Assembly: GCA_964016885.1 (NCBI GenBank)
Contig: OZ024741.1
Coordinates: 60,822,001-60,886,000, forward strand
DNA: 64,000 nt
Direction of reading: 5' to 3'
Source: Eledone cirrhosa
Lineage: Eukaryota
In this document: in pieces, positions 18,487-20,569 of the stretch
Layout of the letters: each line of letters begins with the position of its first letter
Position numbering within the stretch: the first letter of the stretch is position 1
Position numbers and translations under genes: made by a program
Notes under the pieces: generated by a model
The model's database searches: none
What the model was told of the DNA's origin: nothing
The model's input: only the letters and a program-made list of their open reading frames with translations

Positions 18487-18830
18487 ATATATATAAATGA
18501 AAGTATGTATGTATACGTACATACATATATGTATACAGACGTACAGTAGCATGTATATATATATATATATATATATATATATATATATATATATATATAT
18601 ATATATATATATATATATATATATATATATATATATATATATATATATATATATATATATATATATATATATATATATATACAGGCACACATATATATAT
18701 GCACGTATCAGTTTACCGAACATTTATTATAATGTTCGCTTTGTTCGTTTGTAAACAAACGAACAGCCTGATTTATGCCGTACAATGTTTAGGCAACCAT
18801 GTCACCTTTTTGTTCAACACTGACACAGTA

Positions 18831-18873
18831 ACGATGTACTAGTTTCAAGCTTGTTAGCTATCGTCAGCACCGT
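18831..18873 (-). ncRNA. Type I hammerhead, family B, intact copy
   Basis: acggtg-CTGACGA-t agct aaca agct t-GAAA-ctag-TA-catcgt. Confidence 0.9.
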
Positions 18874-19294
18874 ATACCTTTCTGCCAAATGGTTGAACGT
18901 CCGAAAGTATATACTTTTCTTATGAAAATTAACGGCTGGGCAGCCTAATTTGCATATCGAGTGAGTTCAGTCGGCCAGGCGCACCGAAAACGATAAATGG
19001 AATAGAATGAAACGAAATTTCATTTCTCACTCTTAGTACGGCACTTACTTAAATGTAAGTATGTATGTATACGTACATACATATATGTATACAGACGTAC
19101 AGTAGCATGTATATATATATATATATATATATATATATATACATACAGGCACACATATATATATGCACGTATCAGTTTACCGAACATTTATTATAATTTT
19201 CGCTTTGTTCGTTTGTAAACAAACGAACAGCCTGATTTACGCCTCACAGTGTTTAGGCAACCATGTCACCTTTTTGTTCAACACTGACACAGGA

Positions 19295-19337
19295 ACGATG
19301 TACTAGTTTCAAGCTTCTAAGCTATAGTCAGCACCCT
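19295..19337 (-). ncRNA. Hammerhead family B, core-mutated copy
   Basis: Core reads CTGACTA (G8>T), and there is a helix I mismatch. Confidence 0.7.
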
Positions 19338-19808
19338 ATACCTTTCTGCCAGATGGTTGAACGTCCGAAAGTATATACTTTCCTTATGAAAATTAACGGC
19401 TGAGCAGCATAATTTGCATATCGAGTGAGTTCAGTCGGCCAGGCGCACCGAAAACGATGAATGGAATAGAACGAAACGAAATTTCATTTCTCACTCTTAG
19501 TACGGCACTTACTTAAATGTAAGTATGTATGTATACGTACATACATATATGTATACAGACGTACAGTAGCATGTATATATATATATATATATATATATAT
19601 ATATATATATATATATATATATATATATATATATATATATATATATATATATATACATACAGGCACACATATATATATGCACGTATCAGTTTACCGAACA
19701 TTTATTATAATGTTCGCTTTGTTCGTTTGTAAACAAACGAACAGTCTGATTTATGCCGTACAGTGTTTAGGCAACCATGTCACCTTTTTGTTCAACACTG
19801 ACACAGGA

Positions 19809-19851
19809 ACGATGTACTACTTTCAAGCTTGTTAGCTATCGTCAGCACCGT
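19809..19851 (-). ncRNA. Hammerhead family B, helix III mutated
   Basis: GAAA-gtag-TA instead of GAAA-ctag-TA. Confidence 0.7.
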
Positions 19852-20312
19852 ATACCTTTCTGCCAGATGGTTGAACGTCCGAAAGTATATACTTTTCTTA
19901 TGAAAAGTAACGGCTAAGCAGCATAATTTGCATATCGAGTGAGTTCAGTCGGCCAGGCGCACCGAAAACGATAAATGGAATAGAATGAAACTAAATTTCA
20001 TTTCTCACTCTTAGTACGGCACTTACTTAAATGTAAGTATGTATGTATACGTACATACATATATGTATACAGACGTACAGTAGCATGTATATATATATAT
20101 ATATATATATATATATATATATATATATATATATATGTATATATATATATATATATATACATACAGGCACACATATATATATGCACGTATCAGTTTACCG
20201 AAAATTTATTATAATGTTCGCTTTGTTCGTTTGTAAACAAACGAACAGCCTGATTTACGCCGTACAGTGTTTAGGCAACCACGTCACCTTTTTGTTCAAC
20301 ACTGACACAGGA

Positions 20313-20355
20313 ACGATGTACTAGTTTCAAACTTGTTAGCTATCGTCAGCACCGT
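20313..20355 (-). ncRNA. Hammerhead family B, copy 4
   Basis: Core intact; one G-C to G-U change in helix II. Confidence 0.85.
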
Positions 20356-20452
20356 ATGTATATATATATATATATATATATATATATATATATATATATA
20401 TATATATATATATATATATATATATATATATATATAATATATATATATATAT

Positions 20453-20569
20453 ACATGCTACTGTACGTCTGTATACATATATGTATGTACGTATACATAC
20501 ATACTTACATTTAAGTAAGTGCCGTACTAAGAGTGAGATATGAAATTTCGTTTCATTCTATTCCATTTA
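20453..20569 (+). repeat. Inverted partial unit of array B
   Basis: Reverse complement of about 19972-20090. Confidence 0.85.

Follow-up and report, generated by a model that had tools for sequence, protein, structure and literature searches.

The tandem array at positions 18494-20570 of the window (the 64,000-nt stretch of Eledone cirrhosa DNA analysed here) is a member of a high-copy hammerhead repeat family whose head-to-head insertions end, almost without exception, at two different fixed sites of the repeat unit. One 3' end lies at the first of these (site A) and the other at the second (site B) in 78 of 81 pairs, both samples of loci taken together. Judged by its sequence and insertion ends, the repeat belongs to a known class, the non-LTR retrozymes or non-autonomous Penelope-like elements (PLEs). 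The near-constant A+B ends and the identical arms of the youngest insertions suggest two RNA-templated primings, probably on one molecule. We consider it likely that a Penelope-like RT/GIY-YIG protein, supplied in trans, copies this non-coding repeat into (TA)n microsatellites that already exist, and that its internal TA tract rides at the tip of a predicted hairpin.

The array lies on the minus strand and consists of three full 428-nt units and one 5'-truncated unit, with TA tracts between them; its boundaries were redrawn from the 18501..20569 of an earlier note. It begins with a short tail (unit positions 1-60; 18494..18553, minus strand), the 3' end of the long arm, which stops at site A and adjoins (TA)n. 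An internal tract of 128 nt (18554..18681) leads to the body of unit 1 (428 nt; 18682..19109, minus strand), and is followed in turn by a 36-nt tract (19110..19145), the body of unit 2 (19146..19573, minus strand), an 86-nt tract (19574..19659), the body of unit 3 (19660..20087, minus strand), a 76-nt tract (20088..20163) and the truncated unit 4 (20164..20357, minus strand), which holds unit positions 235-428 only. A fifth tract of 96 nt (20358..20453) belongs to the inverted arm and forms the junction between both arms. The inverted arm itself (20454..20570, plus strand) spans 117 nt, unit positions 1-117, and ends at site B, so that the insertion has end A at 18494 and end B at 20570. The (TA)n microsatellite beyond it (20571..20994) is likely the pre-existing target, judging from patterned flanks at other loci.

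Because every full body is 428 nt long, the whole length difference between units sits in the tracts (128, 36, 86 and 76 nt), as the earlier note had proposed. The inverted partial unit that it placed at the array's end is the arm behind the fifth tract, and its four units stand as four hammerheads, of which the fourth lies in a truncated unit, leaving three that are full. Its reading of the array as a tandem hammerhead retroelement is supported. Open frames of at least 120 aa in the array are only those running through TA repeats, which leaves it no protein-coding capacity, and the RT and GIY-YIG open frame that is the hallmark of autonomous PLEs is absent from the unit. A relative from a short-tract subfamily, 83-88% identical, lies near the window's end (63612..63965, minus strand), where it makes up one arm of a head-to-head insertion in (TA)n. 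This copy (63612-64000, locus L061) is an A+B head-to-head insertion of its own that crosses the end of the window.

The four minimal type I hammerheads reported for the minus strand, with spacings of 464, 514 and 504 bp, were confirmed, with cores at 18867-18837, 19331-19301, 19845-19815 and 20349-20319. In each, a stem I of 6 bp is followed by CUGANGA, a short stem II that starts with a U-U, then GAAA, a palindromic stem III of a single pair, and UH. In a descriptor scan, copies 1 (18837..18867) and 4 alone pass as intact by sequence, the latter with a single change in stem II that gives a G-U wobble, and the earlier assignment of copies 1 and 4 as intact and 2 and 3 as mutated is upheld. 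Copy 2 carries G8>U (19326) and a stem I mismatch (19336) and is likely inactive. In copy 3, a C>G change at 19820 breaks the sole C-G pair of stem III and likely impairs the ribozyme. Rfam at the gathering score returned zero matches in the window, so the ribozyme call rests on the descriptor. Folded in silico on their own, the 51-nt motifs have no advantage over shuffled sequences, and the minimum-energy structure predicted for them differs from the hammerhead. The hammerheads may work as dimers, by analogy with amphibian motifs with a weak helix III in the accessible text of two papers (PMC7229834, PMC6155905). Across the family, 125 of 149 bodies have an intact hammerhead. Core hammerhead positions are constant between subfamilies up to 18% apart, with variation at N7, the loop, 10.1/11.1 and position 17. 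A 2026 preprint calls arrays with two consecutive complete hammerheads active; in the window array the intact copies 1 and 4 are non-adjacent, and two consecutive complete hammerheads are found in other family arrays (L197, L201 and L205).

An octamer motif (18948..18955, minus strand; also at 19412 and 19926) is present in each full unit, as had been noted, and in the three full units only. It is exact in 250 of 273 copies, and its constancy ranks 13 of 353 8-mers, level with several other segments. Some 30 nt upstream of stem I of the hammerhead lies a TATA-like palindrome (18904..18917), which is among the least variable 8-mers. By analogy, the two could form a candidate snRNA-type promoter. 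The promoter of newt satellite 2 reportedly includes an octamer.

An exact degenerate pattern for the intact core, which leaves out one older stem I variant, has 13,782 matches in the 3.0-Gb genome, whose repeat make-up may resemble that of octopods, against 0 for a reversed control, so the family is not a product of chance. Exact short-tract junctions number 5,930 genome-wide, and window-type junctions with ten or more TA number 930. The copies described below come from 133 regions, merged from four overlapping samples: top hits to unit 1, pattern hits on C1, the short-tract subfamily (seeded from window 63.6-64 kb) and tract-selected loci. A hammerhead-anchored sample adds 56 further loci outside these regions, from among the first 100 matches listed. 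The family is also present in contigs of public sequencing runs X1 and X4, including under a second organism label.

The 5' ends of insertions vary, their arms meet head to head, and their 3' ends lie at two fixed sites with (TA)n beyond. Across the 133 regions, 188 3' ends were placed: at site A (72; unit positions 42-68), at site B (88; positions 95-117), at positions 419-428 by the tract (15, several of them parse artefacts or nested insertions) and elsewhere (13). Sites A and B lie about 60 and 117 nt beyond the tract and 57 nt apart. Two outward 3' ends in head-to-head arrangement were found in 79 of 127 insertions: 53 are A+B, two B+B and one A+A, and 23 have at least one end elsewhere. 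Where both ends are clustered, A+B pairs thus make up 53 of 56 (binomial p 8e-13), and in the hammerhead-anchored sample they make up all 25 pairs found (binomial p 6e-8). Loose (TA)n ends at site B were also seen in contigs of run X1. A predicted hairpin adjoins each of the two sites, and the tract is the tip of the longer one; hairpin pairs show no two-sided compensatory changes, one pair is frequently broken, and the G-U bias is mixed. The exact end position tracks short matches to the target: all four ends at position 110 abut (TC)n, which matches the last template bases, and ends at positions 51, 56 and 68 abut (CA)n or (TG)n. The arms are identical over 153-303 nt in 7 of the 57 loci compared, and in 5 of these 7 they are closer to each other than to any unit elsewhere. 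The opposite arm is the closest relative in 13 of the 57 loci, a low share that is expected for older copies, yet lends no support.

TA runs follow 158 of 206 3' ends in one count and 69 of 84 in the hammerhead-anchored sample; in short-tract subfamilies the figure is 12 of 20 terminal ends. Interruptions in the flanks match across the insertion, on the same strand, at all four informative loci (L191, L218, L243 and L246), which indicates that the microsatellite predates the insertion. Synthesis of the (TA)n flanks at each 3' end was rejected on these strand-consistent patterns, at four informative loci only. A search for empty sites by paired flanks gave plain (TA)30 between both flanks, at a paralogous empty site, only for L092/L084. 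The flank pair of L091 was dropped because a nested element explains it, and those of L045 and L011 have other sequence between the flanks. At L047, the 3' flank recurs in inverted form on the 5' side of the insertion, which may point to a target duplicated in inverse orientation.

The earlier note had placed the variable tract inside the monomer, and this is borne out: insertions read across it before they end, about 60 or 117 nt beyond, so it is truly internal. Among the copies sampled, it is long in some subfamilies only. Long tracts, a mark of what seem to be derived subfamilies, are confined to one side of a tree of 149 bodies, whose bootstrap is not fully settled and whose root is not fixed. 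Tracts of at least 24 nt occur in 0 of 17 and 0 of 34 copies of the short-tract groups, in 2 of 19 of an intermediate group, in 49 of 55 of the window's group and in 6 of 7 of a divergent group. The spacer is expanded in 80 of 111 cases in the hammerhead-anchored sample. With 2.6% divergence from the group majority, against 2.0-3.3% in the short-tract groups, the window's long-tract group is not ranked youngest by divergence alone. Tracts of one array tend to be similar in length (p=0.0014 for the correlation, from 71 tracts in 24 runs). In the subfamily with identical arms, long tracts carry inherited TG interruptions; runs of 8-9 TA are constant within an array, and runs of 11-20 vary between otherwise near-identical units. 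The length correlation and this behaviour of the runs fit inheritance through the template plus slippage. The arm junction falls at the tract in 4 of 6 arm starts in long-tract loci and in 2 of 32 in short-tract loci (pattern sample, small numbers), and long tracts may attract it. The tract is otherwise likely to be mainly a heritable passenger. A short unrelated segment, possibly a captured fragment, lies within the tract region at L235, and its reverse complement comes after the same position in L192.

A search for an autonomous partner, which covered two young families and the 133 regions, found none. The two families have intact open frames of 784 and 775 aa, and we take them, from a linker motif, to be Neptune-like. 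No sequence is common to the unit and either family, and a hammerhead motif in the ~1.5 kb downstream is almost absent from their loci. Both have internal microsatellites of their own. PLE-protein matches in 24 of the 133 regions have no consistent linkage to the unit, and Pfam recovers GIY-YIG in one of three PLE fragments. Sequence common to the unit and the pLTR of an autonomous PLE was found neither in the two families nor in the 133 regions. With no partner open frame or shared sequence, the mobilising enzyme is deduced from the structure of the insertions.

Several other elements were seen in the same sequences. Fragments of both Neptune-like families, which are very high-copy, have many open frames and carry abundant internal (TA)n and (CA)n in their long 3' regions, lie at window 3019-3948 and 47789-49786 and at L161-L190 and L247-L266. 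A decayed Neptune-like element (window 37677-41199, minus strand) has a minimal hammerhead at 37705-37677, ~120 nt before its (TA)n-flanked 3' end. A second tandem family with an exact 310-bp period occupies window 1-1016 and ends in (TA)n; it has intact minimal type I hammerheads on the plus strand (227, 537 and 847) with a loop II resembling that of the retrozyme family, and its motif recurs at L094, L197 and L221. Six hammerhead-like motifs with a long stem II and a six-base palindromic stem III (21133-21182, 30978-31027, 33220-33269, 33441-33490, 45595-45649 and 59491-59540) are probably ends of other Penelope-like families, and two of them form an inverted pair (33220-33490). Two near-identical LINE copies of the endonuclease-RT type, bordered by (TA)n, lie at 9817-12606, with a 929-aa open frame, and at 34254-36377.

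In the mechanism that we favour, the hammerhead-sense strand would be transcribed, possibly from the candidate snRNA-type promoter of octamer and TATA-like palindrome, and a circular monomer or multimer would serve as template. The protein would nick both strands of a (TA)n target; priming would start at A from one nick and at B from the other, probably with a single RNA as template for both, and a few bases of target match would set the exact priming position. Head-to-head joining of the two cDNAs would follow, and where the TA tract is long, its self-complementary sequence would often be the place of joining. Tracts of more than ~10 repeats would grow or shrink by slippage, either in DNA or while being reverse-transcribed, and daughter copies would inherit the long ones. 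A more specific version, which we put forward tentatively, has a Penelope-type dimer on one retrozyme RNA, probably a circle, with two RTs at hairpin-defined starts 57 nt apart and each target strand priming one. The trailing enzyme would displace the leading cDNA while both roll around the template, and the (UA)n tract would be a heritable, length-variable part of the RNA that aids cDNA joining and makes landing sites for other TA-seeking elements. Such a dimer on one RNA would yield strict A+B pairing, identical arms and tandem units in one step.

Identical arms and A+B pairing would also be accounted for if a single cDNA folded back and copied itself, and the endonuclease resolved the resulting hairpin at the second site, so that A+B reflects cleavage with no second priming. 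Self-priming and EN-mediated tail formation have been proposed for PLEs, in the accessible parts of PMC3846280 and PMC8557442, and arm lengths are compatible with this route in 30 of 38 clean A+B insertions (from a junction set of 111 clusters, 51 of them with one or more 'other' ends, and with 3 same-type pairs). The remaining 8, however, fit neither direction, the longer arm is A in 11 cases and B in 14, with no systematic bias, and in vitro the PLE protein of an anole uses two start sites on the RNA to extend both strands (PMC11167929, accessible text). We regard fold-back as rather unlikely. Alternatively, the arrays could be satellite DNA, amplified by unequal crossover from single PLE terminal fragments, with the hammerhead a relic; the accessible text of a 2026 preprint (10.64898/2026.07.22.740005) suggests local amplification for retrozyme tandems, and arrays L091 and L153 have many variants shared by subsets of units, so that some local duplication or dimer templates occur there. 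Differences between units of an array are mostly private, however (1,589 against 286 shared), and 5 of the 7 arrays with four or more units are close to star-like, which suggests units that were near-identical at insertion and not stepwise duplication. Distances within and between arrays are also near equal in three groups (e.g., 4.3% and 4.4%), copies with fixed A/B ends are dispersed, and the hammerhead core is unchanged between the diverged subfamilies. An origin by crossover is thus very improbable.

The earlier note had suggested another route, in which the (UA)n of the RNA anneals to nicked genomic (TA)n and primes insertion, the element thereby driving microsatellite expansion. The tract is indeed internal and heritable, most hammerhead-anchored spacers are expanded, tracts are long in the subfamily that looks youngest, later insertions went into two internal tracts, and a few insertions (L008, L009, L075 and L156) end in the tract. 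Against this, 160 of the 188 3' ends lie in the tail clusters past the tract and at most 15 at it. Targeting by the tract is contradicted by subfamilies with a fixed 14-nt tract, ~(TA)5, which also end in (TA)n, by the thousands of short-tract junctions and by a target that existed beforehand at all four informative loci. The idea that the element seeds its own target sites survives in a weak form, since internal tracts at L091 and L193 received later insertions by other elements, but their share of genomic (TA)n is tiny: a rough extrapolation puts internal tracts at ~1 Mb genome-wide (14,000-30,000 units of ~40 nt), whereas (TA)6 or longer makes up 14.9% of the window. The element thus consumes far more (TA)n as target than it produces, and the proposed link of retrozyme spread to microsatellite expansion is modest. 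We consider priming by the tract highly improbable.

The two-priming reading is in keeping with traits described for PLEs in the accessible text of earlier work, namely an optional tail on one inverted pLTR, two internal RT starts, both-strand cleavage and a (TA)n bias (PMC3846280, PMC11167929, PMC8557442). EN+ PLEs (Penelope/Poseidon, Neptune and Naiad), as far as the accessible portions of PMC3846280 and PMC8557442 describe them, resemble the family in partial tandems, a head-to-head inverted arm, a tail at one end only, (TA)n targets and a minimal hammerhead; unlike them, it has no open frame, and its tail is ~57 nt against their 30-40. The tail described there as optional is almost a rule in this family. 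Poseidon of Anolis carolinensis, in the accessible account of its in vitro activity (Frangieh et al., 2024; PMC11167929), likewise has two internal RT start sites that delimit the tail, an AT-rich target, both strands cut and extended and a predicted dimer. Its priming in vitro is not target-homologous, its start sites are the same on both strands and its hammerhead cleavage is dispensable, all of which count against the mechanism favoured here. In the present family, exact ends track short target matches, and an insertion hardly ever has two ends of one type.

The family also resembles metazoan non-LTR retrozymes as described in the accessible text of Cervera and de la Pena (2020; PMC7229834) and of Li et al. 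(2026 preprint; 10.64898/2026.07.22.740005), with tandem non-coding units of a few hundred bp, a type I hammerhead in each, low GC, thousands of copies and a proposed PLE mobilisation. Retrozyme units are ~150-450 bp, up to ~1 kb, with a hammerhead each, and the 428-nt body plus tract falls within this range. Two traits of the hammerhead, a U-U mismatch where stem II begins and a weak, palindromic stem III, are similar to ones that the accessible text describes separately for the two axolotl motifs. The family differs in its minimal PLE-type hammerhead and the variable (TA)n tract in its unit, and it is described here at the DNA level; its link to PLEs comes from the insertion ends, in contrast to the pLTR comparison, where no homology was found. 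Newt satellite 2, according to an accessible citation in PMC2220036, is another tandem repeat with a hammerhead and may contain an snRNA-type promoter within its unit; in the present family the promoter is only a candidate, and a PSE was not found. In the accessible text of PMC7229834, neither 'microsatellite' nor 'dinucleotide' occurs, and the literature searched, with few subscription papers and no supplements, described neither a retrozyme whose unit contains an expanding TA tract nor a rule of A+B ends supported by counts.

We conclude that the most useful new result is how strictly the two priming sites are paired. The origin of the tandem and inverted insertions of PLEs, and of their one-sided tails, is open according to the papers cited above, and the mobility of animal retrozymes has so far been inferred mainly from co-occurrence and homology. 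The link to microsatellites is modest, as (TA)n is used by the element far more than it is made. A protein-free family of 430 nt with thousands of copies ties a retrozyme to PLE-type integration through its insertion ends, and it offers both a sharp prediction, one RNA with two primings, and a compact substrate for in vitro work.
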